Source: Gammaproteobacteria bacterium (GTDB lineage Bacteria; Pseudomonadota; Gammaproteobacteria; JAURND01). Taken from it: a stretch of DNA of 64,000 nucleotides. A program made the translations under genes and the position numbers. The DNA lies in contig DASZWJ010000034.1 in the NCBI GenBank assembly GCA_035546635.1, positions 70,243 to 134,242 on the forward strand, written 5' to 3'. Of the stretch, positions 9,930-25,982 are shown piece after piece (within the stretch, counting starts at the first letter, position 1; every line of letters starts with the position of its first letter). The notes beneath the pieces were generated by a model that was not told where the DNA came from, searched no databases, and worked only from the letters and a program-made list of their open reading frames with translations.

Positions 9930-9961
9930 TTAATATTCCCTTAATAGTTTTCTTATAAAAT
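9930..9961 (+). promoter_or_regulatory. PmrA-type direct-repeat box plus -10 (promoter of icmV-dotA copy 1)
   Basis: TTAATATT-CC-CTTAATAGT, then 7 nt, then TAAAAT, about 38 nt upstream of the icmV start. Confidence 0.65.
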
Positions 9962-9998
9962 ACCCTTCAAGCCTGTTATATTTATTGAGGGTAGTTTC

Positions 9999-10460
9999 TT
10001 GAAAAAGTTGTTAAGCGGCGTAGGTCGCGCATTTTTCCCTTTTCGCAATCCAAAGCGTATGGTTGGTTGGGATCAATTGCAAGAAAGCTTTAACAGCTTT
10101 GTGCGTGATCCAGCTAAAGAAGTATTGGGTCGCCGGAATAAAAAAACCAAAACCACTGAAACTTTTGAACAGGCGGTGACCCGCTTAAATATATCAGAAG
10201 AAGACCTCTCAGCCCGAAAAAAAACTTTTTTCCGAACGGCATTATTTTTTGTAGTAATGGCAGTTGCCTTGTTTATCTACACAGTGGATTTACTATTTTC
10301 TGGCCTATTATTAGCCACTTTTATTGCACTGGTATTAGTGGTTATTGCTTTAGCTTTAGCTTTTCGCGAGCATTTTTGGTATACGCAAATGCAACAGCGC
10401 CGCCTAGGAATCACTTTTAACGAATGGACTGGCTATACTTTTAGGGGAAATAAAAGATGA
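9999..10460 (+). CDS. icmV: Dot/Icm T4BSS inner-membrane protein IcmV (copy 1)
   Basis: 153 aa. The C-terminal half (VVIALALAFREHFWYTQMQQRRLGITFNEW) matches my memory of L. pneumophila IcmV (IALALAFRYHFWYFQIKERKLGCSFHEW). The start is TTG with a GAGGG RBS, and the stop overlaps the dotA ATG. Confidence 0.85.
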   Translation: MKKLLSGVGRAFFPFRNPKRMVGWDQLQESFNSFVRDPAKEVLGRRNKKTKTTETFEQAVTRLNISEEDLSARKKTFFRTALFFVVMAVALFIYTVDLLFSGLLLATFIALVLVVIALALAFREHFWYTQMQQRRLGITFNEWTGYTFRGNKR

Positions 10461-13210
10461 GTAGAACAGTAAAAAATTGTCTGATTTTCCTTGTGATGTT
10501 GTTGCCAGTTGCGGCATTTGCCGATAATTCTACCGGTTTACATCTCTTTACTGTTCCCACCAGTGATTTTTCAGTGAGTCTGCTAGAGCGCACTTTTGGC
10601 GCCGTGGGTAGTGTGTTACACGGTAAAGGCAATCAGATCGTTGGTTTGTTGCTCGGCATATTTAATGCCATGTGGGTGATTGTGATTGGTCTTGGTATTT
10701 TATTTCTGGTTTGGGATTCCGTTATGACTGCAGCGCATAGCGGTGAAATGATGCAAAGAAATGGCAAAAAAGCAGCGTTTACCATCATACGTATTGTGGT
10801 GGGTTTTTGTTTGGTAGTGCCAAGCAGCTCCACGGGTTATTCCATGGCGCAGACCGGTGTGGTGTGGGCGGTGGTGCAGGGCGTTGGATTGGCGGACGAA
10901 ATTACTGAAAAAGTGCATGATTATGCACAAGCAGGTGGACAAACTTTTACGCCAAAACCGTCAAGCGCTACCGAAATTGAACCGTTGATGAGCGTGGCTG
11001 CCGATATTCTTAAAGCTGAAGTCTGTATGTTTAAGGTACAGGATTTCCTAGATCAAAAGAAAAAAGAAGAAGACGAAGCATTAAAAGGAACTGGCGTTGA
11101 GCCAAACCCCCCTAGTGAATTTGATAAGATGGGTTATAGCATTAATGTTGGCACGACTTCAGGTAGTGTAACTTTTGGCAGCAAAAATCCAAATTATTCC
11201 CCTGATGATCCTACTACCGGCACTGAATATCTCAGTGACTGTGGTGAAGCCCATTGGAACTTAGTCCTGCCATTACCCGATGCCACTGAAAGCCAAGCAG
11301 CGAGTATGAAAAAAACGCTAGCTGGTTATATGCAAGCTGGCGTGACTGATTTAGTGGTGACTTTACAGCCCCTAGCCCGAGAATTGGCTTCTGCTGATTT
11401 AAGTGATACCGATGAAAATACTGAAAACTTTAAAAAGATAGCCGATAGAGCAGCTACCGCCATTGCGGGTGCGGGTGTTAGTTATACGACATTGATCGAT
11501 CCCATCAGAGGCGCCATAGCAATCACTGGAGAACAGGGTTTAAAAACTAGATTGACGCATTTGAATGAAAGGGGCTGGGTTTTCATGCCGATGATGGTTG
11601 TTGTGCCTGGACTATATTCAGTGGATTCGCTCAACATGGAAAGTTATATGCCGGCAGTCACACCGCCTAATCTGGTTCTCAATGAGCCGGCCAATAAAAT
11701 CAAAGTCTTAAGTTCAGAACAACGTCAAGAGATCATGGATGCCATAGTGCATGTGGAGACCGATAACTATGTCACCTTGGCTACTAATCAATTGAAATTA
11801 ATGGATACCAATAATGAATGGCCTAAGATCGATTTTAAAGCCATGTTCACTGTTGGAACACCTGATGGTAATTATATTAATAATTTAAGTGTTATTTTTG
11901 ATGGCACCCGGGAAATTATGAATGCTGGGCGCTTGGCGGCCAATGGTATGTTGGAGGTGCCTAAAGGCTTAATGCAGGGTATTAAGAGTATTGCAGATTT
12001 CTTTGTGGATGGATTTGACATTGGTGTCCCTGAGGTGTGTATTGGTGACCTGTGTGCCCCAGACATTAGTGTACACATTCCAGGTGTGGGTGGTGATACC
12101 AGCGGTTTGCAGAATGCTATCGATAAAATTAGTAACTTACAGAGCTCTCTGAATGATTCAGTCAATGGTGCCATCGGCAATTTAAATACGTTAGTGAGTG
12201 ATATTCAGAATAGTGCTACTTTAGCCGAGAAAGGCGGAATGACTTCTGAACTCATAGCATTGACAGGTCAGCTGGGGCCTTTAGGTCCGATGTATGCCAC
12301 CGTGATGACAGCCATGATTGGCAAGAGTATCACTAGCTTTGAGAATTATGTGTTTAGTTCAAATACTAACGCACTAGTCAGCTCCATTCAGTTGGGGGGC
12401 GACATGATGGTGGGCGCCATGAAGTCGGTTTTCCTGGGTGGTAAGATTATGTTTATCTCCACGCTGGTACAAGCGGGTATGAATGGTTTAAGCCAGATTG
12501 TTGGCATGATCCCAGGTGGAAAAGTAGTAGGCGGTGTGATGGATGTAGGCACCAACCTGGTGCATAAGGGTATTGAAAGCTTTACTGGTTTTCATATTGC
12601 CTTATCCCTTTTGATGTTTGCAGGTGGGGTGATGCTGTATTTCATGGTGCCACTGACTTTTATAGTCGCGTTTGCGTCGATTTGCTTGCGTTGGATTGGT
12701 ATGGTGTTAATTAACATATTAGCTGCGCCGATTTTTTGCTTTAACCTGATTCGGGCGGATAGTGAAGGTTTAGCTGGACGTGGGGAGCGTTTTCTCGGGG
12801 ATTTGGCGAAAACTGTGCTGACACCAGCTCTTTTAGCCATTGGTGCGATCGCGTTTGTCATATTGTTTAATATTGGATTTATGATTGTGACGACCGTGTT
12901 TAGTGCCTTTTTACCTATGCTGGCTAAAGCCTATAATTCCGCGATATTGATACCAGTAACATTAACACTGATATTACTGACATTTTCGGCGATGATGCTG
13001 TATTTAGCGACAACATTGTCTACTTTATGTACTACCGACTTTGTGAATCAGGTGACTAGTACTATTGGTGACACAATACAGCAGTTGCAAGATCAGCAGC
13101 CGACCCAGGAGATTCGCACCAGAATTCAAGAGGGCAGTCAGTATCCGACTGACAAAGTTAAAGGCATGGCCAGCGGTGGTAGCGGTATTATGGCGAAGGA
13201 TAAGCAATAG
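10457..13210 (+). CDS. dotA: Dot/Icm T4BSS polytopic membrane protein DotA (copy 1)
   Basis: 917 aa with a signal/TM segment, a large central periplasmic region and a C-terminal cluster of TM helices. It is translationally coupled (ATGA) to icmV, as in known icmV-dotA operons. Confidence 0.85.
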   Translation: MSRTVKNCLIFLVMLLPVAAFADNSTGLHLFTVPTSDFSVSLLERTFGAVGSVLHGKGNQIVGLLLGIFNAMWVIVIGLGILFLVWDSVMTAAHSGEMMQRNGKKAAFTIIRIVVGFCLVVPSSSTGYSMAQTGVVWAVVQGVGLADEITEKVHDYAQAGGQTFTPKPSSATEIEPLMSVAADILKAEVCMFKVQDFLDQKKKEEDEALKGTGVEPNPPSEFDKMGYSINVGTTSGSVTFGSKNPNYSPDDPTTGTEYLSDCGEAHWNLVLPLPDATESQAASMKKTLAGYMQAGVTDLVVTLQPLARELASADLSDTDENTENFKKIADRAATAIAGAGVSYTTLIDPIRGAIAITGEQGLKTRLTHLNERGWVFMPMMVVVPGLYSVDSLNMESYMPAVTPPNLVLNEPANKIKVLSSEQRQEIMDAIVHVETDNYVTLATNQLKLMDTNNEWPKIDFKAMFTVGTPDGNYINNLSVIFDGTREIMNAGRLAANGMLEVPKGLMQGIKSIADFFVDGFDIGVPEVCIGDLCAPDISVHIPGVGGDTSGLQNAIDKISNLQSSLNDSVNGAIGNLNTLVSDIQNSATLAEKGGMTSELIALTGQLGPLGPMYATVMTAMIGKSITSFENYVFSSNTNALVSSIQLGGDMMVGAMKSVFLGGKIMFISTLVQAGMNGLSQIVGMIPGGKVVGGVMDVGTNLVHKGIESFTGFHIALSLLMFAGGVMLYFMVPLTFIVAFASICLRWIGMVLINILAAPIFCFNLIRADSEGLAGRGERFLGDLAKTVLTPALLAIGAIAFVILFNIGFMIVTTVFSAFLPMLAKAYNSAILIPVTLTLILLTFSAMMLYLATTLSTLCTTDFVNQVTSTIGDTIQQLQDQQPTQEIRTRIQEGSQYPTDKVKGMASGGSGIMAKDKQ

Positions 13211-13216
13211 CATGCT

Positions 13217-13248
13217 TTAATGTTCTGTTAATGCTACCTAAGTAGAAT
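13217..13248 (+). promoter_or_regulatory. PmrA-type direct-repeat box plus -10 (promoter of icmV-dotA copy 2)
   Basis: TTAATGTT-CT-GTTAATGCT, then 7 nt, then TAGAAT, about 35 nt upstream of ATG 13283. Confidence 0.6.
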
Positions 13249-13282
13249 AACGGAAAGAAAATTGATTATTGAGGGTAGTTCC

Positions 13283-13744
13283 ATGAAAAAACTGTTTACT
13301 GGCCTAGGTCGAGCGTTTTTCCCATTTCGCAATCCTAAGCGTATGGTGGGCTGGGATCAGTTAAAAGACAGCTTTAACAGTTTTGTGCGTGATCCTGCGA
13401 AAGAAGTTTGGGATCGTAAACAAAAAAGAGTTGTGATCAAAGAGACTTTTGAAGAAGCATTAGTGCGTTTAAATCTCTCGGAAGAAATGGTGGTTGAGCG
13501 TAGAAAAACGTTTTTGCGCACAGCTCTGTTTTTCGTGGGGGTAGCACTAGTATTGTTTGTGTACACAATGTATTTGCTGTTTTCAGGGTTGTTTTTGGCT
13601 ACCTTTATCGGATGTGTTTTAGTAGTGATTGCGTTGGCTTTAGCATTTAGAGATCATTTTTGGTATACACAAATGAAACATCGTCGTTTGGGTCTGAGCT
13701 TTAGCGATTGGGCGAACTATACGCTGGGGAGAATAAAAAAATGA
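13283..13744 (+). CDS. icmV: IcmV paralog (copy 2)
   Basis: Same 462-nt length as copy 1 and the same upstream ttattgagggtagtt RBS region. The sequence (MKKLFTGLGRAFFPFRNPKRMVGWDQL...) is highly similar to copy 1. Confidence 0.85.
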   Translation: MKKLFTGLGRAFFPFRNPKRMVGWDQLKDSFNSFVRDPAKEVWDRKQKRVVIKETFEEALVRLNLSEEMVVERRKTFLRTALFFVGVALVLFVYTMYLLFSGLFLATFIGCVLVVIALALAFRDHFWYTQMKHRRLGLSFSDWANYTLGRIKK

Positions 13745-16389
13745 CCAGAATAGTAAAAAATTGTTTCATTGTTCTCTTGATGCTGTTGCCGGTCGCGGCA
13801 TTTGCTGATATTTCCAGTCTGAATTTGCATTTCTTCACGCCACCACAAGGTGATTATTCAGTTAGCCTTTTAGAGCGAACTTTTGGTGCTGTCGGCAATG
13901 TTTTGCATGGCCGGGGTAACCAAATCATCGGTATTGTTCTTGGTGTTTTCAATGCGGTGTGGGTCATTGTGATTGGCCTTGGTATTTTATTTGTGGTATG
14001 GGATACCGTGATTACTGCGGCACAAAGCGGAGAAATGATGCAGAGTCGCGGTAAGAAAACGGTATTTACGATTTTGCGTATTGTGATGGGTTTCGCTTTG
14101 GTAGTACCGAGTAAAGCCACTGGATACTCCATGGCGCAGAACGGCGTAGTATGGGTCGTAGTCCAAGGCGTGGGTTTAGCAGATCAGATTACGCAAAAGT
14201 TACATGATTATTTGCAGGCAGGAGGTCAGACTTTTACTTCTAAACCTTCTACCTCTGCGGATACAAACTTTTTAATGCCGATTGCAGCTAATGTGCTTAA
14301 GGCTGAGGTCTGCATGTATAAGTTGCAGGATATCGCAGATGAAAGAAAAAAATTACGCGATGAAGCGTTAAAAGAATCAGGAAGTTCCACTGATGCCGGT
14401 AGCGAACTGGCTAAGATTGGTTATAGCATTAATGTAGGTGAAAATTCGGGGAATATTACTTTTGGCAGCAAAAACCCGGCGTATAGTCCTAATAAAGCGG
14501 GTGAACCTGAATATCTCAATGATTGCGGGCAAGTTGACTGGGATGCTAGTGCGGTTGGCCTGCCAATGGCGAGTGATGCTGAAAGAGTGAGTGCCCGGAA
14601 AACGCTAGCGGGTTATATGCAAGCGGCTGTCACTGAAATGGCGTTGAATTTGCAACCTGTAGCCAGAGAGCTGGCTTCTCTTAATTCGAGCGATACCACT
14701 AGCGCAGATTCTATAGCGCAAAGAGCCGCAACTGCGATGGCAGGTGCTGGCACTAGTTTTGCCACATTACTTGACCCACTGAAAAAAGCGGTTGCAGTGA
14801 GTGCAGAGACCGAACTGAAAAATTCGTTGACTACGCTGAACAACAGAGGGTGGATTTTTACCCCGATGATGGTTATAGCGCCTGGGTTATATAATTTGAC
14901 CTCAATAAAACTCTCCGATTATGCGCCTGCTGCTAAATTGACGGATATTGGCAGTTCTACCATCGGTGTGCTTAAAGAGATAGATGGAACCGAAAAACAG
15001 CAGATAATCACGGCAATGGCGAAAGTGGATGCCAACTACGTTAGCAAAGCGAATGAGTATTTAAAGCTGATGGATGACAATAGTCAGTGGTCGGGTATTG
15101 ATTTTGCCGCACTGTATACAGGTACCCGCGATGCGAGTTATCTCGAGCATCTTAATGGTATATTTGATGCGACTAAATGGTCTTTGGACGCGGGTGCAAC
15201 TGCGGCCGCAGGTTTATTAGAAGTACCTAAGGGTGTAACAGAGTTTTTTAAAGACGTAGGTGATTTTTTTGATGCCGATACTTCAAAGTTACAAAATGGC
15301 ATAGATAAAATCACATCAGCACAGCAAAGTGTCCGTGATATGGTGGGTAATGCCAGTGGTAACTTGGATGCCTTGGTTGATGACATTCTAAGTGCTAAGG
15401 ACTTGGCGGTAAAAGGTGGTATGACTACGCAACTGCAGGATTTAACAGGTCAATTGGGTCCTTTAGGTCCGCTTTATGCGACGATTATGACTGCTATGAT
15501 TGGCCGGAGTATGGAAAGTCTGGAAGGTCATTTGTTTAACCCGAAATTTAATGCCATGGCCAGTTCTATTTATGTAGGTGGCGAGATGATGGTGTCGGCT
15601 ATGGAGTCGACTTTCCAAGCGGGTAAGATTCTGTTTGTTGGGACATTAGTTAAAGCTGCTGTGGATGGTTTGAACCAGGTGGTGAGCGCTATTCCTTATG
15701 TCGGCGGTGCTGTTGGCGGAATTGTGAGTATAGGCTCCAATCTGGTCCATAAAGGTATTGAGACTTTTTCGACCTTCCATATTGCGCTTTCAGTGATGTT
15801 ATTTGCCGGTGGTGTGTTGTTATATATTGTAGTGCCGCTGACCTTTGTGGTGGCGTTTGCTGCAATTTGTTTGCGCTGGATTGGTATGGTGATGATTAAT
15901 GTCCTGGGTGCGCCTATTTTTTGCTTTAACCTAATCCGTTCAGATGGTGAGGGGATGATAGGACGCGGGGAAAGGTTCTTGGCTGATCTGGCTAAGACGG
16001 CATTAACTCCGGCGATTCTAGCAATTGGTGCTGTGGCCTATTTGACGCTGTTTAATATTGGTTATTTGTTGATTACCTCCATTCTATCAGAATTCTTGCC
16101 GATGTTGGCTAAAGCGTATAATGACCCGATTTTAGTACCGGTGTCGCTAGCTGTGATATTAATGGTATTTTCGACCTTAATGGTGTACATCTCGCAGACT
16201 TTGGCTAATTTGTGTACTGCGGAGTTGGTAAACCATGTGACCGGTACCATTGGGGATACCATACAGCATCTGCATGATCAGGGTGTGGTTGAGCAGATGA
16301 AGGGTAGCGTGACCAAAGGCAGCGATAAGATGTCGGGCGGCATAAAGAGCATGACCAGCAGTGGTTCAGGTATGGGGCCTAAGCTATAG
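13741..16389 (+). CDS. dotA: DotA paralog (copy 2)
   Basis: 882 aa from ATG 13741, with the same ATGA overlap with icmV as copy 1. It is collinear with copy 1 (MTRIVKNCFIVLLMLLPVAAFA vs MSRTVKNCLIFLVMLLPVAAFA; C-terminal FCFNLIR..GRGERFL.DLAKT conserved). The reading frame is intact. Confidence 0.85.
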   Translation: MTRIVKNCFIVLLMLLPVAAFADISSLNLHFFTPPQGDYSVSLLERTFGAVGNVLHGRGNQIIGIVLGVFNAVWVIVIGLGILFVVWDTVITAAQSGEMMQSRGKKTVFTILRIVMGFALVVPSKATGYSMAQNGVVWVVVQGVGLADQITQKLHDYLQAGGQTFTSKPSTSADTNFLMPIAANVLKAEVCMYKLQDIADERKKLRDEALKESGSSTDAGSELAKIGYSINVGENSGNITFGSKNPAYSPNKAGEPEYLNDCGQVDWDASAVGLPMASDAERVSARKTLAGYMQAAVTEMALNLQPVARELASLNSSDTTSADSIAQRAATAMAGAGTSFATLLDPLKKAVAVSAETELKNSLTTLNNRGWIFTPMMVIAPGLYNLTSIKLSDYAPAAKLTDIGSSTIGVLKEIDGTEKQQIITAMAKVDANYVSKANEYLKLMDDNSQWSGIDFAALYTGTRDASYLEHLNGIFDATKWSLDAGATAAAGLLEVPKGVTEFFKDVGDFFDADTSKLQNGIDKITSAQQSVRDMVGNASGNLDALVDDILSAKDLAVKGGMTTQLQDLTGQLGPLGPLYATIMTAMIGRSMESLEGHLFNPKFNAMASSIYVGGEMMVSAMESTFQAGKILFVGTLVKAAVDGLNQVVSAIPYVGGAVGGIVSIGSNLVHKGIETFSTFHIALSVMLFAGGVLLYIVVPLTFVVAFAAICLRWIGMVMINVLGAPIFCFNLIRSDGEGMIGRGERFLADLAKTALTPAILAIGAVAYLTLFNIGYLLITSILSEFLPMLAKAYNDPILVPVSLAVILMVFSTLMVYISQTLANLCTAELVNHVTGTIGDTIQHLHDQGVVEQMKGSVTKGSDKMSGGIKSMTSSGSGMGPKL

Positions 16390-16609: not shown

Positions 16610-17740
16610 TTATCCTGACTCACTAGAACGTGAGCTGCGCACAAGTAGATTATATTCACGTTCCGAAATAATCCCTTCATTAAATTTCTGTTCAGCGTCT
16701 TTTATCATAGGCTGCCCCCTTTCATTGACCAGGCGGCGGGTGATGGCTGTGACTTTTTCTGGATCGACGGATAACAGTTGATCGCGGGTATCCTCATCAA
16801 AAACTAGATATTCACGTAAGGCGACGCGTTTGCCATCGACGGTGGGTACGAGTTTTTGCCAGATGACCAGACGGATGGTTTCAATGATGTCTATGGTGCG
16901 GGCTTGTAGTTCTTCGGGGGGGAAAGCGCCTACTAAGCGGCGTAGGGTTTCGGCGACGCCGTTACTGTGTACGGTCGTGTAAACCGGATGGCCGGTTAAG
17001 GCGGCTTCTAGTACGGCGCTAATGGTTTCGGTGTCGCGGGATTCACCTACCAGGATTAGACGTGGTTTGCGCCTTAGAGCATTTCTGACGCCAGCCGCGA
17101 AAGAAGGGAGGTGCATGGGGATTTCTGATTGGCTGACGATGGCGGTGGGCTTATCAATGGCGTCAAATACGAATTCTATAGGCGCTTCATAAGTTAAAAT
17201 TTTTCTATGGCTATTGGGATCTTTTGCGATCTCCTTGATGATAGCGGCGAGTAGGGTGCTTTTTCCAGAGCCGGTTGCTCCGCATACGTAAACCACGCCA
17301 TCTTCCGGTGCAATGGCGTCTAAGACGGGTTTGGGCAGGTTGAGTGTCGAGAGATCGGGTGGGTAGGTAGGAATGGTACGCAGTGTCAATTGAATCCCGG
17401 CATGACCTTCGACTTGACACCCAGTGCCATTGACACGAAAGCGGAAGCGGCTGCTGCGAGTGGGTCTGAATTCATAATGCGTATCTACGTCCTGACCGCT
17501 TAAAACTTGAGTGGTACCATTTGGACCATAAATGCCATTTAAAATATCGCTGACTTCACCATTTGAGAGTTTGCGTCGGGTAATTTTATAGAGTTTTCCG
17601 TGTATTTCAGCAATGATGGGTTCGGCAGTTTGTAAGGTGATATCGGAAGCACCTTTTTCTGTGCAGAACGCCAATAGCTGCTCGATATGATGCGAGGTAA
17701 AGCGATGGGGTTCATTGGGGTATTGATATTCTGAGCTCAT
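16610..17740 (-). CDS. dotB: Dot/Icm T4BSS ATPase DotB (PilT/VirB11-like)
   Basis: 376 aa with Walker A GATGSGKST, PRLILVGESRD and HPVYTTVHS motifs. It sits downstream of dotD-dotC. Confidence 0.92.
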   Translation of the reverse strand: MSSEYQYPNEPHRFTSHHIEQLLAFCTEKGASDITLQTAEPIIAEIHGKLYKITRRKLSNGEVSDILNGIYGPNGTTQVLSGQDVDTHYEFRPTRSSRFRFRVNGTGCQVEGHAGIQLTLRTIPTYPPDLSTLNLPKPVLDAIAPEDGVVYVCGATGSGKSTLLAAIIKEIAKDPNSHRKILTYEAPIEFVFDAIDKPTAIVSQSEIPMHLPSFAAGVRNALRRKPRLILVGESRDTETISAVLEAALTGHPVYTTVHSNGVAETLRRLVGAFPPEELQARTIDIIETIRLVIWQKLVPTVDGKRVALREYLVFDEDTRDQLLSVDPEKVTAITRRLVNERGQPMIKDAEQKFNEGIISEREYNLLVRSSRSSESG

Positions 17741-17765
17741 AGGTAAAGTTTATAGTGGTGGATGA

Positions 17766-17900
17766 TTTTTTTCCTTCTTTCTCCCGTAAGCACTGTGGCT
17801 TGCTCCCACAGGGGCATAGGTGTTAAGCGCTGTATCCCCTCTCCCACAAGGGGAGAGGGGGTTACAGTGCTTGTGGGAGAAGGAGCTTTAGAAGGGGAAA
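17766..17900. repeat. Composite REP-like element inside the dotC-dotB intergenic space
   Basis: The outer inverted repeats are ccttctttctcccgtaagcactgt / acagtgcttgtgggagaaggag. The inner hairpin is cccctctcccacaaggggagagggg. Confidence 0.7.
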
Positions 17901-17907
17901 TAGCGTT

Positions 17908-18846
17908 TTACTCCAGCATTTCCGTACCTTCAGTTCCCTGTTTGCGGATGGCGCCGTCAGTGCCTGGCAGGACAATGGCCTTCCATTTTTTGCTATTAGG
18001 TATTAGCTTGGAAGTTGCTGTAATGCGCAATACCTGGTCGTTAATGCGCATTTGGTTGTCATCTCCTGTTACGCCTAAATCAGTTTTGGCGACAAACGGT
18101 GCTGTGACCATGTTTTGTGCTAGCAAGACGCGATAGGTAATCATGCCATTATAATCGCGTTTTAAACGTCCCATATTTTCAGAAAAGATGGAATTCGCTT
18201 GTTGAATACCATCCTGCCAACCTTCTGCCACGGCATCATTCCATATTTTACGCTCTTCGTCGGTACGGGGTAATAAGGAACCCGGGGGTTTTTCCGGCTG
18301 CTCATAGTTCATATATAAGTATTCTCGCCACGAAGGTGGGGCGGTGACAAAACGTGGAGGGCTTTCAATTTTAAAAACTCTATCGGCTAAACGCAGCGTT
18401 TCAGGATTGTCTAGGTTTAAGGCTTTTTCGCCTTGGGTTAAGACCGGGGGTAACACGTTTTGGTTAAGAAGTAGGGCGTGGAAGTTAAAAGTCTGATCGA
18501 GATTACGTTCGTTCATGTCTAGTATTTTATTAATGCGCTGTGATGCCCAAGCTAACCCGCTTTGTGCGCCCATGCTGGTAGCCGTTTCGGTTAAAATGCT
18601 TTGGCGTATTTGATTGACTTGTGAACCGTCGGTTGCTGTGGCAGGGTAGCCATTGATAATGCTGGGCGGAGGTGGTTTTTTGTTGCTGGAGCAAGCAGTT
18701 ATCAGTGTGGCAGCAATAAAAATAAAGACCAATTTGCTAAGTATTCTCCATAATTTGCCATCGTTACTGATGTTTTGGGCAAAATCTGAGAAATGCGTGA
18801 TAACTAGTCTTCTGGTTGCTTCGATGTTCAAATTAATTTTGCTCAT
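17908..18846 (-). CDS. dotC: Dot/Icm outer-membrane lipoprotein DotC
   Basis: 312 aa with lipobox LITACSS. Size and position between dotD and dotB match known dotDCB operons. Confidence 0.85.
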   Translation of the reverse strand: MSKINLNIEATRRLVITHFSDFAQNISNDGKLWRILSKLVFIFIAATLITACSSNKKPPPPSIINGYPATATDGSQVNQIRQSILTETATSMGAQSGLAWASQRINKILDMNERNLDQTFNFHALLLNQNVLPPVLTQGEKALNLDNPETLRLADRVFKIESPPRFVTAPPSWREYLYMNYEQPEKPPGSLLPRTDEERKIWNDAVAEGWQDGIQQANSIFSENMGRLKRDYNGMITYRVLLAQNMVTAPFVAKTDLGVTGDDNQMRINDQVLRITATSKLIPNSKKWKAIVLPGTDGAIRKQGTEGTEMLE

Positions 18847-18880
18847 GAGTATGGGTAGCCATTAAAGAATTGTACGTATT

Positions 18881-19369
18881 TCAGGAATAACGGTAACGCA
18901 ATTCAATAGTTCTGCGGCTGGGATATATGACAATATCGGCTTTTTTGCCAGCTTGGTAATTGGCGTCTCTTAAGATATCCGCAATAGGCATGTTGACTGC
19001 ATAAACTGCAACTAAAACTGGAATATTGGGATTTTTGCCTACGACACGGAACTTATAATTGCCAGCAGCAGCTAATTTTGCGACAAGTGGTTCCACGGGG
19101 CCGGTCCAGTCTACAGAAGTGGGGGCTCCTAATCCGATGCTATCAGGATTTAACGGGGGGGCTAGTTTTGCTTTGGGGTGGGTGGCTTTTTCTATAGCTG
19201 CCAATTCATTGAGAGAAGCGCTGACTGAGGTGGCAGCTTCTGTCAATTTTGTTCGGGCATTTTGTGTGCCGGCATCTGGGGGATAATAAGCGACAACTTT
19301 CGTTGATCTTGTACATCCTTGGAGCAACAAAATTGTCATAAGACTCACGACCAGCAATTTAATTTTCAT
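18881..19369 (-). CDS. dotD: Dot/Icm outer-membrane lipoprotein DotD
   Basis: The start is chosen at MKIKLLVVSLMTILLLQGC, which has an AAGGA RBS and a lipobox, giving 162 aa. The ORF track extends to 19468 without signal-peptide logic. Confidence 0.85.
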   Translation of the reverse strand: MKIKLLVVSLMTILLLQGCTRSTKVVAYYPPDAGTQNARTKLTEAATSVSASLNELAAIEKATHPKAKLAPPLNPDSIGLGAPTSVDWTGPVEPLVAKLAAAGNYKFRVVGKNPNIPVLVAVYAVNMPIADILRDANYQAGKKADIVIYPSRRTIELRYRYS

Positions 19370-19570
19370 CGTCCTTTTGACCATCGCAAGTGAGAGGTTA
19401 GTGGAAGTGCCATGACTGCATTTTAGAGTGCAATCAAGGCCTTGGCTATGATTGCGGTATTGAAGCAAGTTGGGAAGTGGCTGTCAATGAAATTATAGGG
19501 CTTTGATAGTTTTAGAGGCAATAAAGTGTTATAATTTAAATGTATTAGAGTAGAATTTTTAGGTGATTAT

Positions 19571-19831
19571 ATGCTTAAGACCCCTTCCCCCAACAGCCAT
19601 TGGCGTGATTCAGCGCGTTATCCGCGGTTCTTTTTTGTGGATGCCAGAGCGGTTTTTCCAGTCTTCTTTTGTTTATTGCATATCAAGTTGTGGACAATTT
19701 TATTAGCTGTGTCGGTAACAGCGTTTTTCACGGTTTTGAATTATTATGGGTTTAGTGTAGCGGTTTTTGGTCGCTGGCTCAGGTGTACCCTTGCTGGACG
19801 AAGAAAAGTGGCCATACCTTGGTGGGTTTGA
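19571..19831 (+). CDS. icmT: Dot/Icm inner-membrane protein IcmT
   Basis: 86 aa. The motif HWRDSARYPRFFFVDARAVFP is characteristic of IcmT/TraK-like proteins. Confidence 0.9.
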   Translation: MLKTPSPNSHWRDSARYPRFFFVDARAVFPVFFCLLHIKLWTILLAVSVTAFFTVLNYYGFSVAVFGRWLRCTLAGRRKVAIPWWV

Positions 19832-19888
19832 CTAATTTTTAATAATTCCAAAAAATATAGTAACTTTCGTTATCCATGAGGCAAATAA

Positions 19889-20227
19889 ATGGAATTGAGT
19901 AAACAGCTAGCTGCGCTGGCAAAGTCGTTGAATGTGAGATTTACTTTTAATGAAAAGCCTATAAGCTATGATGAGGTTTTCTCCTCGACTGGACTTTTGC
20001 CAGGTATAGCGCGTCGTGCTGACCAATTGTCTTCATTGTGTCTCGGGTATGGGATTGGCGCTATGTTTGATGATGCTGAAAAAACTTTGCTTGGTGTTGA
20101 AGTTAAGTTTGATGAAGTTACGCCTAATGTATTACGTTTATTATGCTTGACGGATGTGATGCTGGAGCTAATCAAATCCGCTGCCTCTAAGGATGCTGTG
20201 TCCTTAGATGAATTAATGTATGATTGA
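19889..20227 (+). CDS. icmS: Dot/Icm type IV adaptor/chaperone IcmS
   Basis: 112 aa. FDEVTPNVLRLLCLTDVM and the C-terminal LDELMYD match L. pneumophila IcmS as I remember it. Confidence 0.9.
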   Translation: MELSKQLAALAKSLNVRFTFNEKPISYDEVFSSTGLLPGIARRADQLSSLCLGYGIGAMFDDAEKTLLGVEVKFDEVTPNVLRLLCLTDVMLELIKSAASKDAVSLDELMYD

Positions 20228-20433
20228 GTTGAGTCTTGCTGCAACATATTGATTTATTTAAGCTTTTTATTTGTCTCACTGTTTGTTTTCTCTGCCTTTT
20301 CCCCCAATGAACACCCTCCAAATGACTACATTTTGCACAGCCTGCTGACTACTTTTTATACAGGTATTCTGTGTTTAAATTAACTCCATAAAAACTTGAC
20401 TAAAGTATGAAGCCAAAGGGGAGATTAAACACA

Positions 20434-20679
20434 ATGCTATTAAACTATTTTAAATCCATGAAAGCCCTTGCCGTTGATTCTGGCAGTACCCGCCGCTATA
20501 TACTATCAGGTATTAATTTACTGTTTGTAGGCTGTTTAGTGGTAGTTTTATTGAAGTCAGCAGCATTGTTGCCTATCACTATCGCATGTGAAATCCTGGC
20601 TAAATTTCTTTTGGGTCATTTAATAGAAAAGTGGATGCTGCGAGCAAAAGAAAAGCTTTTAAATAATTCAATTGGTTAA
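20434..20679 (+). CDS. Small membrane protein (about 81 aa), unknown function, inside the Dot/Icm locus
   Basis: An AAGGGGA RBS precedes ATG 20434. There are two hydrophobic segments, and the C-terminal KFLLGHLIEKW resembles KFVLGKFLEIL of the next ORF. Confidence 0.45.
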   Translation: MLLNYFKSMKALAVDSGSTRRYILSGINLLFVGCLVVVLLKSAALLPITIACEILAKFLLGHLIEKWMLRAKEKLLNNSIG

Positions 20680-20689
20680 GGTGATAGCG

Positions 20690-20929
20690 ATGCAGACTAT
20701 GATAAAACATGAAAAAGCGCATAATTATGTATTTTTAGTATTTGCAGTGTTGGTAATGGCTATTTGTATTGTTTTAGCTATTGCCATTCTGTGTGATCTA
20801 TCCTCAATGGTAACAATTAGTTTTCCAATTAAACAAGCAGGCAAGTTTGTATTAGGTAAGTTTCTAGAAATACTGATTCAACGCGGTATGAATGGCGTCA
20901 ATTTGTTTATGAATTCCTCCAGCATTTAG
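20690..20929 (+). CDS. Small membrane protein (about 79 aa), apparent paralog of the previous ORF
   Basis: An AAGGTGA RBS precedes ATG 20690. It has two hydrophobic segments and abuts or overlaps the previous ORF. Confidence 0.45.
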   Translation: MQTMIKHEKAHNYVFLVFAVLVMAICIVLAIAILCDLSSMVTISFPIKQAGKFVLGKFLEILIQRGMNGVNLFMNSSSI

Positions 20930-21289
20930 TGGAGGAATTCAATCTTGCGGGAAGATTGGCAATATTAATTCCGTATTCATGCATTTTTACCTGTATTTTT
21001 CGCTTAATTTGTTATTTTCTAATATATCTTGCAGCCCCCTCCCTGTGTAAAATAAACACCAATCTGGCAGATTTTTTTACGATCTGTACCTCATAAATTA
21101 TTACAGAATGCCTACCGCATTACGGCTATGTGGTGGCTATTGTAAGCAGAAATACAATCAACAATTCTCTTTGCTTTTTAATCTTAGTTTTATCAAGGTA
21201 AGCTGAATTTCCCATTTCTAAAAGGAGCCGATCAGAACCTGCATTATGAGTGGATTACTCAAGCAAAGGATAGCTAATAGTATGAATTT

Positions 21290-21321
21290 ATTAATATTCT
21301 CTTAAGGTGGAGTAGGTAGAA
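21290..21321 (+). promoter_or_regulatory. PmrA-type direct-repeat box plus -10 (promoter of the icmR-position ORF and icmQ)
   Basis: TTAATATT-CT-CTTAAGGTG, then 7 nt, then TAGAAT, about 70 nt upstream of GTG 21393. Confidence 0.6.
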
Positions 21322-21392
21322 TGGACTCATGAACTAAAGAGCCAGAGCATAAAAAATGACTCTGGGATTTTAATGTTTGTGGAGGAGTTAAC

Positions 21393-21695
21393 GTGAAAGA
21401 AAACAATAATAATACGTTGGTCGATGCTGAAGAACACAAACATGACCATGATAAAGAAGTAGTAGACCAAGTAGAAACAGTGGCTAGAAAAGTAAGAGAG
21501 GATGTAAGCCAGCTCAGGGGTCAGGTAACTACCCTTCAAAACCGCAATAATACCCAATTTTTTAAGCCAGCGACAGGTGAAGCAGCTAAAGTTATTGGGG
21601 GTTTGCTTGATAATGCTGTAGATGTGGCACGCAAAGAAGAAGAAAAAGCTCAAGAGTTATTGCAAGGTTCAAAATTGGGTTTAAGCGGGAGCTAA
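21393..21695 (+). CDS. Candidate functional IcmR analogue (FIR-position ORF; possible IcmQ chaperone)
   Basis: A 100-aa, highly charged, helix-prone protein lying directly upstream of icmQ. The start is GTG with a GGAGGAG RBS. The call is based on position only. Confidence 0.45.
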   Translation: MKENNNNTLVDAEEHKHDHDKEVVDQVETVARKVREDVSQLRGQVTTLQNRNNTQFFKPATGEAAKVIGGLLDNAVDVARKEEEKAQELLQGSKLGLSGS

Positions 21696-21741
21696 GAATA
21701 AATAAAACTTTCCAGCCTATTCTATTTATTCGGAGTGAATT

Positions 21742-22299
21742 GTGTATCAACAAGAAGCAAGAGACAGACTGGTCAATGCATTAGATAAGGCTATTAATGA
21801 AGGCCAATGGGAAGGCAGTTTGTTTTTTAGAAATATATTGAAACGGCTGCATGAAATTCGGGAATATGTCGTAGTAGAATTAGACGATCCTGAGCAAGAC
21901 ACGGAAGTCAATGCAGAGCTAGTAAATGCCATCAACAAACAAGAACAAGGTTACCAAAAAGTATATATTGCCATCTATCAGGCACAAGGTGACCGCTTAG
22001 CAGGGTGGACAAATGCGGTCAGTAAACTGTGTGATTATTATATTAGCCGCCCGGTTTATCAAAAAGAAGATCACGTGCGTGAAATGATTTTCGCCAAACG
22101 CAGCAGGAATGATGCTTATGTTGCAATTTGGGTTCGTCAAGAAGATATTTTGGGGACGAATAAAACGCAGGATCGCTGGGGGCATGAACTGCTGATCTTA
22201 AAAGAAGGCAGTGTCAAAGTTGAGAATATTATTGAATTTGTGCATGACAATTATAGATATTCCCTGATGGGAAATAAATTAGTGTTAAATAATGCATAA
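21742..22299 (+). CDS. icmQ: Dot/Icm protein IcmQ
   Basis: 185 aa. The N-terminal helical region (LVNALDKAINEGQWEGSLFFRNILKRL), the size and the position upstream of icmP fit IcmQ. Confidence 0.8.
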   Translation: MYQQEARDRLVNALDKAINEGQWEGSLFFRNILKRLHEIREYVVVELDDPEQDTEVNAELVNAINKQEQGYQKVYIAIYQAQGDRLAGWTNAVSKLCDYYISRPVYQKEDHVREMIFAKRSRNDAYVAIWVRQEDILGTNKTQDRWGHELLILKEGSVKVENIIEFVHDNYRYSLMGNKLVLNNA

Positions 22300-22369
22300 A
22301 GTTTTTTTGCCTAATTCTCTTGAGTAAAATTAGGCCAATTTTCAAACTATAAAGTAAAACAGGTGTCAA

Positions 22370-23509
22370 ATGCAAGGTCGTCAACAAGGTGGTAATGGTG
22401 ATAATTCCATGGATATGCTGTGGATAGGAGGCGTGCTTATCGCTTTTGTCCTAGGTATCTGGTATTTCGGCCGTTTTTATATTATTCAAACCGCCTTTTT
22501 CGTTAAATATTACGAGATCAACGTGATTAACTATGTGTTAGGCGCGTGGAATTTGCTAGCGCATAAAGCTAGCTTGCCTGAATTTAATTTAACACTGCTC
22601 AAAGAGTTGCAAGCGCAAATTCAGACCAGAAGTATTGGTACAAATTATTCAGCGCTACAAATTGCTATGACCATGGTGGGACAGTATCTGTGCTATCCAT
22701 TAGGGTTGGTGATGGTGATTTTAGCGTTTATTATTCACGGTAAAAACATCACGCTAAAATTAAGAAACGTTTTCAGCATGAAAACCATGAAGCAAATGGA
22801 GCAGAAAGAAAATCCCCAGATTGCGCCGGTGATTAAATTGAGTTTGGCTAAAGAAAATGTCAACCAAGGTAACTGGGCAATGGCTATGACGCCCATGCAA
22901 TATTGCAAGCATATGAAGTTATTAAAAGAGAAAAAATCTGAAACCGGTGCAGTGACAGTAGAATTATTGCGTAGTGAGGCGCAGCAGGCATTTGTACTGC
23001 AACTTGGACCTTTATGGAGTGGGGTTGAAACATTGCCCTTGCATGCGAAAGCTTTATTTGCAGCATTTGCTGCCTTTGGTAACCAAGATCGTGCCGGTGG
23101 TATGAGACTGCTGCAGCATATTTCAGGTTCTGCAGCCGAAGGTCAGTTGAATTTTGATGGCACGCATGCCTTGTTAGCTAAACATAAAGACAGCAAATTG
23201 GTAGCCAAAGTCATCAGCAGACATGCTTATATATTAACCGTATTTGCAACGATGTTGGAATTAGCTAGAACCGATGGCGTATTTGCCACCAGTGAGTTTT
23301 TATGGTTAAAGCCGCTCAATAGACGCTTGTGGTATGTGTTAAATACCGTAGGCCGGCAAACGGCTGTGCCTGAAGTTGGCGGAGTTTATGCGCATTGGAT
23401 CGCGGAGAAAAAATGGGGTGGTGCATTGCGTACCCCTATGGTTGAGGAAGCGGTAAAAGGATTAGAGATCGCTCTTTCAGAAGTTATTTATGAAGCTGAA
23501 GAAGAATAG
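22370..23509 (+). CDS. icmP: Dot/Icm coupling-complex membrane protein IcmP/DotM
   Basis: 379 aa with N-terminal TM segments. It lies immediately upstream of icmO/dotL. Confidence 0.85.
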   Translation: MQGRQQGGNGDNSMDMLWIGGVLIAFVLGIWYFGRFYIIQTAFFVKYYEINVINYVLGAWNLLAHKASLPEFNLTLLKELQAQIQTRSIGTNYSALQIAMTMVGQYLCYPLGLVMVILAFIIHGKNITLKLRNVFSMKTMKQMEQKENPQIAPVIKLSLAKENVNQGNWAMAMTPMQYCKHMKLLKEKKSETGAVTVELLRSEAQQAFVLQLGPLWSGVETLPLHAKALFAAFAAFGNQDRAGGMRLLQHISGSAAEGQLNFDGTHALLAKHKDSKLVAKVISRHAYILTVFATMLELARTDGVFATSEFLWLKPLNRRLWYVLNTVGRQTAVPEVGGVYAHWIAEKKWGGALRTPMVEEAVKGLEIALSEVIYEAEEE

Positions 23510-23517
23510 GTGGCGGT

Positions 23518-25881
23518 ATGGCTCGTGCATTACGTGGTTTAGAGCAAAATCAAGAACAAAATTATTCACAACTATTGCGTGATACCCGCACTGTAGGGCA
23601 GCGCATTCGCGATTTCTTCAGGAATTCTTTCGCGGTTGCGATGTCGCTGGTGTTTGGCGCTGTGGCAGGTGTGTTTTTTCCAGCGCTGACAGAATTTATT
23701 TTCATGTTTGGGGTGCTGTTTTTTCTGATTGGACTCGCAGTGACACGTAAACTGACCTTACCGTTTCGTATGCCGCAACGCTGTGGAGAACCAGACTATA
23801 ATGATCCGGCGCCAGGATCAAATAAGCCGCGTAAAGCCCGCGGCATTTATTTTCTCGGTAATGAAATAAAAACCAAAGAAGAATTGTGGTTTGCCAACGA
23901 TGATATGCGTACGCACATGTTGGTATTCGGCTCAACCGGTAGCGGTAAAACCGAAGCCTTAGTTTCTATTGCTTATAATGCGCTTATCCAGGGCAGTGGC
24001 TTTATTTATGTGGACGGTAAAGGTGATAACTCCTTATTCGCCAAAGTATTCTCCATGGTGCGTTCCATGGGGCGTGAAGACGATATGCTGTTGATTAACT
24101 TCATGACCGGTGCGAGAGATATTATTGGTCCGCAGAAAAGCCGCTTGTCCAATACCATGAATCCGTTTGCCAATGGTTCATCCAGCATGCTTTCACAATT
24201 AGTTGTCAGTCTCATGGACTCAGGTTCCAGCGGCGGTGATGGCGATATGTGGAAAGGCCGTGCGGTGAACTTCGTCGAATCATTGATGAAAGTGCTAGTC
24301 GCAATGCGTGATGCCGGTCATATTTTGCTGGATGCCAATACCATTCGTAACTATTTCCATCTAGAACGTATCGAAGCGATGGTGATCGATAAGGTATTTA
24401 TCCGTGACGATCAAGATCCAATCAATATCGAATATCTGCCGCCATTGGTCATAGAACCAATCAAGAACTATCTGCTCAACTTGCCTGGCTACAATAAAGA
24501 GAAAAAAGGCAAACAGGTGTCACAGGTATTAGAACAGCATGGTTTTATCACCATGCAGCTGACTAAAGTGTTCGGTTCGTTGTCAGATACCTATAGCCAT
24601 ATCATGCGTACTAACCTGGCTGAAGTGGATTTAAAAGACGTGGTGCTTAATCGTCGCATTTTAGTTGTATTATTGCCGGCATTGGAAAAATCTCCTGATG
24701 AATTGTCCAACTTGGGTAAGGTCATTATCGCTTCGTTGAAAGCAATGATGGCGGCAGGTTTAGGTGATGCGGTCGAAGGTGATTACCGTGATGTGATTCA
24801 GCGTAAGCCGACCAATTCGCTGACTCCCTACTTATGTATTCTTGACGAGTATGGATATTACGCGGTGAAGGGTTTTGCGGTGGTGCCAGCGCAGGCACGT
24901 TCTTTAGGATTCTCGGTAGTTTTCGCCGGACAGGATTTACCTGCCTTCCAGAAAGCTTCTAAAGAAGAAGCCTTATCTATCGGTGCGAATACCAACATCA
25001 AGATTTGTATGAAATTGGAAGATCCATTGGATACCTGGGATTTCTTTATGAAAACCGCAGGTGAATCTTATGTGACCTCAGTTAAAGAGTTCCAAAACGA
25101 TGCGACCAAGGCGATAGCCGGTTACATGGATAGCAAGAGCGCCCAAGTGGAAAAACGCGCGCGTGTTGACTTATTGGACTTGAAAGAGCAGCGCGAAGGG
25201 GAAGCGCATATCTTCTTTAAATCGAAGATTGTGCGCGCGAAGATGTTTTATGCCAACCCTGAAATTGTGCCGCACATGCGTTTAAATCAGTTCCTCAAGA
25301 TTGAAACACCACCGGATTCTGTACTAGCGGAATTGAGTAAAGTTGGCAGGAGTTTTGAAAATATAATGAATAGTGGCGATATTTTTGCTAGTATCGATGC
25401 TATCGAAGACGATTTAGGGATAATTACTAACGCAATCATTAATGGAGATGGAACTCAATCAGCCATTGAACGCGGAGTTGCGGCGCTGTTAGCGTTTCAT
25501 TCCCGGGTTCTGCCAGAACAACCTGCTGAAGAAGAGTTATTACCAGAAATACCCCAGACTGAACTTAATTTATTTACGCCATTACGTGTATCGGATCATA
25601 TCCAGCACTATATCCTGGTTAAAGATATTAATACATTTGGCGCTCCATTCCTTGAGCCTATCACAATCAGGGAGAATATGATTAATGTCGAGCGTTTATT
25701 AGGAAGGGGAGAGGTTCAGGCTATTAGCATCGGGACAGAAATTCTAAAAGATATGCAGCAGGCAACCCATTATCCTCCAGACATTGAAGATAATCCAATG
25801 CCTGAGGAACTGTCTGATTTGATTTCCAATTTGCTGCAGCATATTGTGTTGAGGAAGACTGAGTCTAAAGCTGAGGCCTAA
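23518..25881 (+). CDS. icmO: Dot/Icm type IV coupling protein IcmO/DotL
   Basis: 787 aa with two N-terminal TMs, Walker A GSTGSGKTE and Walker B-like LCILDEYGYY. Confidence 0.92.
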   Translation: MARALRGLEQNQEQNYSQLLRDTRTVGQRIRDFFRNSFAVAMSLVFGAVAGVFFPALTEFIFMFGVLFFLIGLAVTRKLTLPFRMPQRCGEPDYNDPAPGSNKPRKARGIYFLGNEIKTKEELWFANDDMRTHMLVFGSTGSGKTEALVSIAYNALIQGSGFIYVDGKGDNSLFAKVFSMVRSMGREDDMLLINFMTGARDIIGPQKSRLSNTMNPFANGSSSMLSQLVVSLMDSGSSGGDGDMWKGRAVNFVESLMKVLVAMRDAGHILLDANTIRNYFHLERIEAMVIDKVFIRDDQDPINIEYLPPLVIEPIKNYLLNLPGYNKEKKGKQVSQVLEQHGFITMQLTKVFGSLSDTYSHIMRTNLAEVDLKDVVLNRRILVVLLPALEKSPDELSNLGKVIIASLKAMMAAGLGDAVEGDYRDVIQRKPTNSLTPYLCILDEYGYYAVKGFAVVPAQARSLGFSVVFAGQDLPAFQKASKEEALSIGANTNIKICMKLEDPLDTWDFFMKTAGESYVTSVKEFQNDATKAIAGYMDSKSAQVEKRARVDLLDLKEQREGEAHIFFKSKIVRAKMFYANPEIVPHMRLNQFLKIETPPDSVLAELSKVGRSFENIMNSGDIFASIDAIEDDLGIITNAIINGDGTQSAIERGVAALLAFHSRVLPEQPAEEELLPEIPQTELNLFTPLRVSDHIQHYILVKDINTFGAPFLEPITIRENMINVERLLGRGEVQAISIGTEILKDMQQATHYPPDIEDNPMPEELSDLISNLLQHIVLRKTESKAEA

Positions 25882-25895
25882 ATCAGTCGTGACCC

Positions 25896-25954: not shown

Positions 25955-25982
25955 TGTAAAATTGTTATTCTAGGGAAAAAAC

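Follow-up and report, generated by a model that had tools for sequence, protein, structure and literature searches.

An ancient tandem duplication of icmV-dotA within a Dot/Icm locus and the two DotA channel subunits that it may supply

Why should a bacterium carry two genes for DotA, the channel protein of its type IV secretion system (T4SS), the Dot/Icm system, when the rest of the machine is encoded once? The question is raised by a stretch of 64,000 nucleotides from an uncultured, Legionellales-like Gammaproteobacteria bacterium (lineage JAURND01; assembly GCA_035546635.1, contig DASZWJ010000034.1, positions 70,243 to 134,242), hereafter called the window, in which two icmV-dotA units stand head to tail. 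A preliminary description of this DNA had proposed an old duplication with both copies retained. The evidence set out below makes it probable, from comparison of sequences, that an ancient tandem duplication of a PmrA-type promoter-icmV-dotA operon provided one machine with a choice of two VirB6-like channel subunits.

The two units lie inside a single, contiguous and complete chromosomal Dot/Icm locus, at one end of it, with an offset of 3284-3287 nt between them; tsaB is found upstream, and all other recognised genes of the locus are single copy. The core set dotB/C/D and icmT/S/Q/P/O/L/E/G/J/B is present, which identifies the system as Dot/Icm. The features of the units are as follows (RBS, ribosome-binding site).

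9930..9945, + strand: PmrA-type box of unit 1 (TTAATATTCCCTTAAT), found by motif enrichment, its variant kept in a relative
9954..9961, + strand: -10-like element of unit 1 (TATAAAAT), in which the hexamer TAAAAT begins 26 nt past the box start
9982..9996, + strand: RBS region of unit 1 (TTATTGAGGGTAGTT), an identical 15-mer standing at 13266-13280
9999..10460, + strand: icmV1, 153 amino acids, TTG start, NCBIfam IcmV_IVB 130.9 bits
10457..13210, + strand: dotA1, 917 amino acids, ATGA overlap with icmV1, TIGR04346 160.9 bits
12005..12094, + strand: copy-1 loop of DotA1, residues 517-546 (Cys528, Cys533), a gap in DotA2 in the BLASTP alignment
13217..13232, + strand: PmrA-type box of unit 2 (TTAATGTTCTGTTAAT), beginning 7 nt past the dotA1 stop codon
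13243..13248, + strand: TAGAAT, the -10-like hexamer of unit 2, 26 nt past the box start, read from the sequence
13266..13280, + strand: RBS region of unit 2 (TTATTGAGGGTAGTT), the same 15-mer as in unit 1
13283..13744, + strand: icmV2, 153 amino acids, ATG start, IcmV_IVB 118.3 bits
13741..16389, + strand: dotA2, 882 amino acids, ATGA overlap with icmV2, TIGR04346 152.5 bits

The two complete units with a shared micro-architecture that the preliminary description had reported were thus recovered in full, with open reading frames (ORFs), boxes, -10 elements, RBS string and ATGA overlaps all in place. Both icmV genes are 462 nt long, and at both junctions the ATGA holds the icmV stop and the dotA start. 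All four ORFs are open on the + strand without internal stops, in agreement with the earlier statement that neither unit is frameshifted or interrupted. The scores listed above place IcmV1 and IcmV2 within NF038219 (the IcmV_IVB equivalog, cutoff 100 bits) and DotA1 and DotA2 within the DotA/TraY family TIGR04346 (cutoff 100 bits). Against the T4SS_DotA equivalog NF033886, with a cutoff of 500 bits, DotA1 and DotA2 reached 189.5 and 180 bits; judged by these scores, they are divergent DotA-family proteins and not close equivalogs of the Legionella/Coxiella type.

The junction between the units was confirmed independently. Logan assemblies of SRR12170514 and SRR12170517, which derive from independent read sets, matched the window at 100% identity across 10.7 kb and at 99.98% across 9.5 kb, respectively, and both cross the 13.2-kb junction. 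The closest genome found, the metagenome-assembled genome (MAG) MFD09286.bin.1.170 (hereafter MFD09286), a distant relative whose TsaB and DotB are 62% and 91% identical to those of the window, has the layout tsaB, icmV, dotA, icmV, dotA, and then dotBCD. These two lines of evidence uphold the earlier view that the doubling is not an assembly artefact, and the units, lying head to tail on the same strand and being mutual closest relatives, have the properties of a genuine tandem duplication. An assembly chimera, or arrival of the second unit through horizontal transfer (a plasmid traX-traY might be the source), was considered and rejected as exceedingly improbable: the two independent assemblies are identical across the junction, MFD09286 shows the same layout, the four DotAs of the two genomes are mutually closest with 100% bootstrap support, and GC content is even over the units, at 0.42-0.47. 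IcmV1 has a sub-threshold match to plasmid TraX (E = 1e-4, 22 bits vs a cutoff of 100), which reflects family relatedness only and lends no support to transfer.

How far have the copies diverged, and where? BLASTP aligned DotA1 with DotA2 in 917 columns at 56% identity, and IcmV1 and IcmV2 are 71% identical. At the DNA level, direct-repeat families in kept register (3284-3287 nt spacing) show 72-84% identity, and blastn aligned unit 1 with unit 2 in two stretches, one of 1654 nt at 69% and one of 870 nt at 68%, the centre not being alignable. A gradient of conservation, with the membrane-rich terminal thirds better preserved than the periplasmic centre, had been judged by eye and is borne out by the regional identities, which are 76% for residues 1-150 (signal peptide and two membrane helices), 50.5% for residues 151-590 (periplasmic extended domain), 64% for residues 591-860 (C-terminal hydrophobic helices) and 42% for residues 861-917 (tail). 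Between the copy-2 orthologues of the window and MFD09286, the C-terminal hydrophobic helices are 75% identical. The clade-conserved cysteines C190, C262, C743, C761 and C858 (DotA1 numbering) are present in both copies.

Thirty-seven sites are fixed differently between copy 1 and copy 2 in both genomes (P0007, whose contig carries a second dotA, was one of four outgroups in this and in the quartet, indel and relative-rate analyses), and the majority of them are conservative changes in the membrane parts. Seven of the 37 cluster at residues 201-223, where copy 1 has a PxPP-type loop, common to the outgroups, and copy 2 has T-x-A-G; in a profile alignment, with low posterior confidence, this segment lies opposite residues ~205-223 of L. 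pneumophila DotA. The second conspicuous difference is a 28-residue gap in DotA2 opposite VDGFDIGVPEVCIGDLCAPDISVHIPGVGG of DotA1 (residues 517-546). This segment of about 30 residues with its cysteines had been described as an addition in copy 1 that copy 2 lacks. It is indeed missing from both copy 2 genes, in the window and in MFD09286, but it is not simply an extra of copy 1, since MFD09286 copy 1 also has it, there without the two cysteines, and the outgroup locus L015 carries a Cys-containing loop at the same position; because of these counterparts, we regard it as a variable loop that copy 2 lacks. DotA is the fastest-evolving among the locus genes compared, single-copy genomes included (between the single-copy loci L006 and L015, DotA is 35% and DotB 72% identical), and within the apparatus, as far as compared, it is the periplasmic domain of DotA that evolves fastest. 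No special acceleration after the duplication need be invoked.

The age of the duplication was addressed with a neighbour-joining tree of 15 DotA sequences (705 ungapped columns, 500 bootstraps), in which W1 and W2 denote copies 1 and 2 of the window and R1 and R2 those of MFD09286. These four sequences form one clade with 100% bootstrap support, nested among single-copy loci with the gene order lipoprotein-tsaB-icmV-dotA-dotBCD (e.g., L006 and L015). Within the clade, sequences group by position, with 93% support for (W1,R1) and 86% for (W2,R2); an earlier tree that included very distant DotAs gave only 31% and 68% for these groupings. Shared indels follow the same pattern, five being specific to copy 1 and one to copy 2, compared to one specific to the window and one specific to MFD09286. 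Because the tree, the shared indels and the promoter variants described below agree on positional orthology, the duplication predates the split between the window and MFD09286, and it can be placed after the split from the single-copy relatives of the same gene order (L006, L015). DotA2 is 62% identical to copy 2 of MFD09286.

Estimates of the ratio of nonsynonymous to synonymous substitution rates (dN/dS) by the method of Nei and Gojobori (NG86) were 0.17 for W1-W2, 0.18 for W1-R1, 0.09 for W2-R2 and 0.09 for IcmV1-IcmV2, and did not exceed 0.20 in any DotA region, although these ratios are rough because synonymous sites are saturated (dN 0.29-0.33 and dS 1.8-3.3 for the dotA pairs), a saturation on which the YN00 method failed for the dotA pairs. 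Identity at third codon positions is 0.33-0.60 throughout dotA, and therefore there is no recent conversion tract. Both dotA copies are intact and, as judged from these substitution patterns, have been under purifying selection since the duplication. The proposal of an old duplication in which both dotA copies were kept has accordingly gained support from saturated dS, dN/dS of ~0.09-0.18, the lack of conversion tracts and the same layout in MFD09286.

Is the doubling peculiar to this genome? ORFs were labelled in 10 loci from species-representative genomes and in 37 metagenome loci, and all loci were scanned for DotA N-terminal modules. A single icmV-dotA was found in ~21 lineages with enough flanking sequence; in several of these single-copy lineages, IcmW is 80-90% identical to that of Legionella species. 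Tandem dotA pairs were found in 5 of ~26 informative lineages, namely the window, MFD09286, L052, L014 and L011, in a sampling biased toward relatives of the query. The preliminary description had given dotA and icmV as single copy in L. pneumophila and C. burnetii; the ~21 lineages are single copy too, and two dotA genes are not unique to the window genome. The pairs outside the clade of the window and MFD09286 are arranged as follows.

L052 (JGI Ga0117941_1000115): tsaB, PmrA-type box, icmV remnant, dotA of 920 amino acids, icmV, dotA of 914 amino acids, dotBCD; DotAs 46% identical
L014 (CAYGKN010000047.1): icmV, dotA, dotA; DotAs 55% identical, both passing the NF033886 cutoff with scores of 550 and 542 bits
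L011 (Coxiellaceae single-cell genome AG-453-P19): icmV, dotA, dotA; DotAs 33% identical, the second cut by the contig end

The second DotA copies of L005 (the MFD09286 locus), L052, L014 and L011 also exceed the TIGR04346 cutoff. The two DotAs of L052 make up a clade with 100% bootstrap support, as do the two of L014; the L052 pair is sister to single-copy L015 and P0006 (100%), and in L011 each DotA has the other as its most similar sequence among the DotAs compared. Because the pairs group with themselves on the tree, at least four separate duplications are the most economical reading, and dotA seems to have been doubled on separate occasions in several uncultured relatives.

Two of the single dotA genes in the comparison are themselves broken: in MAG MFD00731 (L007, 9998-12896) the gene is spread over two overlapping frames, and in Coxiellaceae SSA3 (L009, 9812-12391) over three, through either frameshift errors of long-read assembly or real pseudogenisation.

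The fate of the upstream icmV differs from that of the dotA beside it. In the window it is intact (153 amino acids); in MFD09286 it encodes 84 amino acids, with an in-frame deletion of approximately residues 17-89, and scores 45 bits for IcmV, under the cutoff; in L052 it is a pseudogene remnant of ~36 amino acids with a stop codon, next to the intact 920-amino-acid dotA; and in L014 and L011 icmV was never duplicated. Since the other lineages have an upstream icmV that is shortened or dead, or have none, it is apparently the second dotA and not the IcmV-DotA pair that has been retained, and the idea of two alternative IcmV-DotA pairs, as first put forward, would need correcting accordingly. 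One IcmV apparently suffices for two DotAs, and these loci thereby offer indirect information on IcmV.

In MFD09286, dotD is followed by a DDE transposase and a Sel1-repeat protein of >1299 amino acids (L001, 19372-20079 and 20282-22646) and not, as in the window, by icmT and icmS; the Dot/Icm locus of MFD09286 is therefore broken at this point.

Each unit has a promoter of its own. A TTAAT-N6-TTAAT box precedes both, and in each case a -10-like hexamer begins exactly 26 nt beyond the start of the box. This box pattern occurs 7 times in the 64-kb window compared to 0.56 expected. Both units match the predicted PmrA-regulon promoter pattern (TTAA-N7-TTAA half-sites at a fixed distance from the -10 element), in what we take to be the PmrA consensus. 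Box variants are kept by position: the unit 1 variant TTAATATTC[C/T]CTTAATAGT and the unit 2 variant TTAATGTTCTGTTAA are each found in both the window and its relative MFD09286 (locus L005). Boxes also stand upstream of icmV in L006, L015 and L007, and five related genomes in all, L052 included, have them. No pmrA gene was recognised among the ORFs scanned in the 64-kb window. A scan of positions 13100-13300 found no terminator-like site between the units, and therefore transcription from unit 1 probably also runs on into unit 2. Differential expression of the two units is possible, given their own PmrA-type promoters, the position-specific box variants, and the TTG and ATG starts of icmV1 and icmV2, respectively.

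What might a second DotA do? Release of DotA from the cell has been reported in the literature. The sole solved structure matched by sequence was L. pneumophila DotA (PDB 9ngy/9nh0), to which the N-terminal 200 residues and the C-terminal hydrophobic stretch align (E = 3e-26; 2e-33 with a profile). This protein is a VirB6-like C5 homopentamer that forms, with IcmX, an inner-membrane/periplasmic protochannel (10.1101/2025.06.23.660953); DotG contacts transmembrane helices 1 and 2 of DotA, the DotA extended domain interlocks with the IcmX pentamer, a DotA hairpin inserts into IcmX, and in the in-situ structure the DotA loop 205-220 touches the IcmX base (10.1101/2025.06.23.660953). Seen against this structure, the paralogues of the window would keep the membrane helices, which have to fit a machine otherwise encoded in single copy, and would have diverged in the periplasmic extended domain, the side that faces its partner. 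The cell would then build two channel or gate variants on one secretion apparatus, most simply as homopentamers of two kinds, because a fixed 1:1 mixture cannot be fitted into a five-fold ring. Selection would keep the second dotA, with the co-duplicated icmV1 as a passenger, intact in the window and decaying or absent in the other two-dotA lineages, and the dotA pairs of several lineages would suggest a general advantage in diversifying a fast-evolving channel protein.

A more specific form of this proposal can be offered only tentatively. The machine might have two structurally distinct DotA-IcmX gates, used according to host, stage or effector set. Gate 1 would be built with the hairpin loop of copy 1 and with a PxPP loop of the ancestral type; in gate 2 the hairpin would be missing, and the loop in the stretch aligned with the IcmX contact would be remodelled. 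VirB6-like doubling might then be a recurrent and convergent adaptation of host-directed T4SSs, with at least four origins in uncultured Legionellales and a parallel in the VirB6 arrays of Rickettsiales.

Besides the roughness of the dN/dS ratios given above, several observations weigh against the reading of two alternative channel subunits kept since an old duplication. When the extended domain alone was used, support for grouping by position was only 64% and 23%. Quartet sites gave a mixed signal, with 37 in favour of orthology by position, 27 that unite the copies of one genome and 14 for the crossed pairing, and the excess of by-genome over crossed sites (p = 0.06) makes some early gene conversion or within-genome co-evolution possible. 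An asymmetry in rate between the copies is weak, with p = 0.04 for one outgroup (83 vs 58 changes) and no significance with three others. The extended domains, on which the proposal of partner-facing divergence depends, are not alignable by sequence to L. pneumophila DotA, and models of them are poor: AlphaFold 2 (AF2) models, built from a 7-sequence alignment (a profile search returned the same 7 proteins) and used for secondary structure only, had predicted local distance difference test (pLDDT) scores of 46 for DotA1 and 43 for DotA2, making structural statements on the extended domain and hairpin weak. In the model, the copy-1 loop forms strands 520-524 and 537-541, a predicted beta-hairpin between two long helices, at a pLDDT of ~40. 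Foldseek returned 9ngy as the only significant match (E = 1.2e-5), with a template modelling score (TM-score) of 0.17 because the model is poor (pLDDT 46). IcmX, the direct partner of DotA, and IcmW were not found within the 64-kb window; in a search with an IcmW profile made from distant loci, the best 120 of 3049 matches were all Legionella-like. Finally, symmetry is the sole ground on which two kinds of homopentamer are inferred.

Some of these observations would be expected if DotA1 and DotA2 formed one mixed channel, an obligate hetero-oligomer with both proteins needed in every machine. The units are adjacent and probably co-transcribed, with no terminator-like site between them and the same kind of box, the 27 by-genome against 14 crossed sites fit co-evolution within each genome, and the heterocomplex of the paralogues DotI and DotJ provides a precedent (PMC8896642, PMC11338181). 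Such a channel is nonetheless unlikely, given that L. pneumophila DotA is a C5 homopentamer, whose five-fold ring is unsuited to a fixed 1:1 pair, that one DotA serves in the single-copy relatives, and that the units have separate promoters with box variants kept by position. The excess of by-genome sites also bears on the age of the event, since it would be produced if a single, much older duplication in the common ancestor of the window clade and L052 had been followed by concerted evolution and by loss of a copy in the single-copy relatives. Tandem repeats are prone to gene conversion and to loss by unequal crossover, and the architecture and position of the units (tsaB, unit, unit, dotBCD) are identical in the window, MFD09286 and L052. 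We nevertheless consider this history improbable: no conversion is evident since the old split of the window from MFD09286 (93% and 86% support, indels, promoters and no tract of high third-position identity), it would take one gain, losses on at least two occasions (L006; L015 with P0006) and no fewer than two episodes of conversion, where separate duplication takes only two gains, and the duplications of L014 and L011 involve dotA only and lie in more distant lineages.

It could also be that one unit, probably unit 1, is superfluous and has merely not yet been inactivated. The decay of the upstream icmV in MFD09286 and L052 agrees with this, as do the slightly higher dN/dS of DotA1 (0.18) compared to DotA2 (0.09), the weak rate excess with one outgroup and the TTG start of icmV1. 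However, the 2.75-kb dotA1 frame is intact in two lineages between which synonymous sites are saturated, with dN/dS of 0.18 overall and at most 0.20 by region, the upstream dotA of L052 is intact despite its dead icmV, and the copy-1 orthologues have specific indels and a conserved promoter in common; a redundant spare is therefore very doubtful. Compared to each of these alternatives, two alternative channel subunits on one machine remain the reading that we favour.

Comparison with known systems shows which parts of the arrangement are new. The icm/dot operons of Coxiella reportedly carry PmrA-type boxes. Like the canonical icmV-dotA operon, the units of the window have a small icmV directly ahead of dotA, dotB, dotC and dotD convergent downstream, and a PmrA-type TTAA-N7-TTAA box upstream, and like the DotA of PDB 9ngy, their DotAs appear to have a signal peptide and two membrane helices at the N terminus, then a large domain in the periplasm, and hydrophobic helices toward the C terminus. 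In contrast with the canonical operon, the module is present twice in tandem with its own promoter for each copy, and the DotAs, with scores far under the equivalog cutoff and extended domains that do not align with that of L. pneumophila, differ from canonical DotA. Legionella-like loci in the sample (compare L020-L051) have icmW and icmX, divergent, upstream of icmV, where the window and its clade have tsaB.

Among duplications of secretion genes, the closest functional parallel, by analogy, would be the rvh T4SS of Rickettsiales, which has five tandem VirB6 paralogues in addition to duplicated virB4, virB8 and virB9 (Gillespie et al. 2009, PMC2653234). In both cases a VirB6-type channel subunit of a host-directed T4SS, in Rickettsiales that of an intracellular bacterium, is present as tandem, diverged copies conserved mainly in the hydrophobic core, but the systems are of class IVA and IVB, respectively, no sequence relationship was detected, and the window has two copies, with only dotA, with or without icmV, duplicated. 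Piscirickettsia salmonis carries its entire 16-gene Dot/Icm cassette two or three times at separate sites (PMC5671498); it likewise has more than one dotA and icmV per genome, whereas the window duplicates only a 3.3-kb sub-module, in place and within one system. The paralogues DotI and DotJ (IcmL and IcmM), which associate in a heterocomplex and of which DotJ has lost the periplasmic domain, and the icmL genes duplicated in tandem in Coxiella are further cases in which an inner-membrane component was duplicated in tandem within one system and both copies were kept; the component is a different one, and, in contrast with DotJ, both DotAs of the window are full length. In the literature that could be searched, no duplication of dotA or icmV-dotA is described, and the tandem doubling of dotA is, as far as we found, an undescribed variant of a known Dot/Icm system.

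The interest of this variant lies mainly in the dotA pairs of several lineages and in the recent identification of DotA as the gate of the machine, DotA and IcmX having been shown in 2025 to form the central gate for Dot/Icm effectors. Any functional suggestion, which we offer as a hypothesis, would be best framed around DotA and not around an IcmV-DotA pair. Two diverged DotAs on one machine would amount to a natural experiment on which parts must stay fixed, presumably the membrane helices fitting DotG and the rest of the system, and which may specialise, presumably the extended domain together with the loop aligned to the IcmX contact. The repeated doubling of dotA, the repeated decay of icmV and the independent expansion of VirB6 in Rickettsiales together suggest that channel diversity itself may be under selection.

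The remainder of the Dot/Icm locus, downstream of unit 2, is made up of two blocks.

16610..19468, - strand: dotB, dotC and dotD, single copy and convergent with dotA2 (DotB TIGR02524 612 bits, DotD NF033882 180, DotC Pfam T4SS_TraI 265)
19571..37456, + strand: icmT, icmS, icmQ, icmP/dotM, icmO/dotL, icmN-like, icmL, icmE/dotG, icmG, icmJ and icmB, single copy

The icmN-like, icmG and icmE products score under the equivalog cutoffs, yet those families are their best matches. Directly upstream of icmQ (20407-20929 and 21393-21695, + strand) lie two adjacent small membrane-protein ORFs (90 and 85 amino acids) and an acidic 100-amino-acid ORF; this is where IcmR or its functional analogues are encoded in Legionella species. 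A predicted lipoprotein of 251 amino acids (7671-8426, + strand), encoded two genes upstream of tsaB, consists almost wholly of Ser/Thr-rich repeats (VPGSTDQST-like).

Further PmrA-type boxes occur on the + strand at 31254, 31435 and 39008. Those at 31254-31269 and 31435-31450 lie between icmE/dotG and icmG, the second one 23 nt before the icmG start (31473). The box at 39008-39023 (TTAATGTAAGGTTAAT) stands ~75 nt upstream of an unannotated ORF of 452 amino acids (39099-40457, + strand), just outside the Dot/Icm locus, which had no NCBIfam match and no meaningful PDB match; these same searches ruled it out as IcmX, and it is a candidate for a PmrA-regulated effector or an unrecognised component of the system.

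The window also contains a dispersed palindromic element that resembles repetitive extragenic palindromes or miniature inverted-repeat transposable elements (REP/MITE-like), with the core CTTCTCCCCTTGTGGGAGAAGG and 10 matches (≤3 mismatches) compared to 0 expected. The sites are at 2448-2591, 16408-16588, 17837-17858, 26540-26561, 48493-48622, 57943-57964 and 61008-61029, and the matches often form inverted pairs, ~90-120 nt apart, in intergenic DNA. In the spacer between dotA2 and dotB, the element is present as nested 24-nt inverted repeats, and both Logan contigs stop at window position 16463, just beyond its first inner repeat arm.

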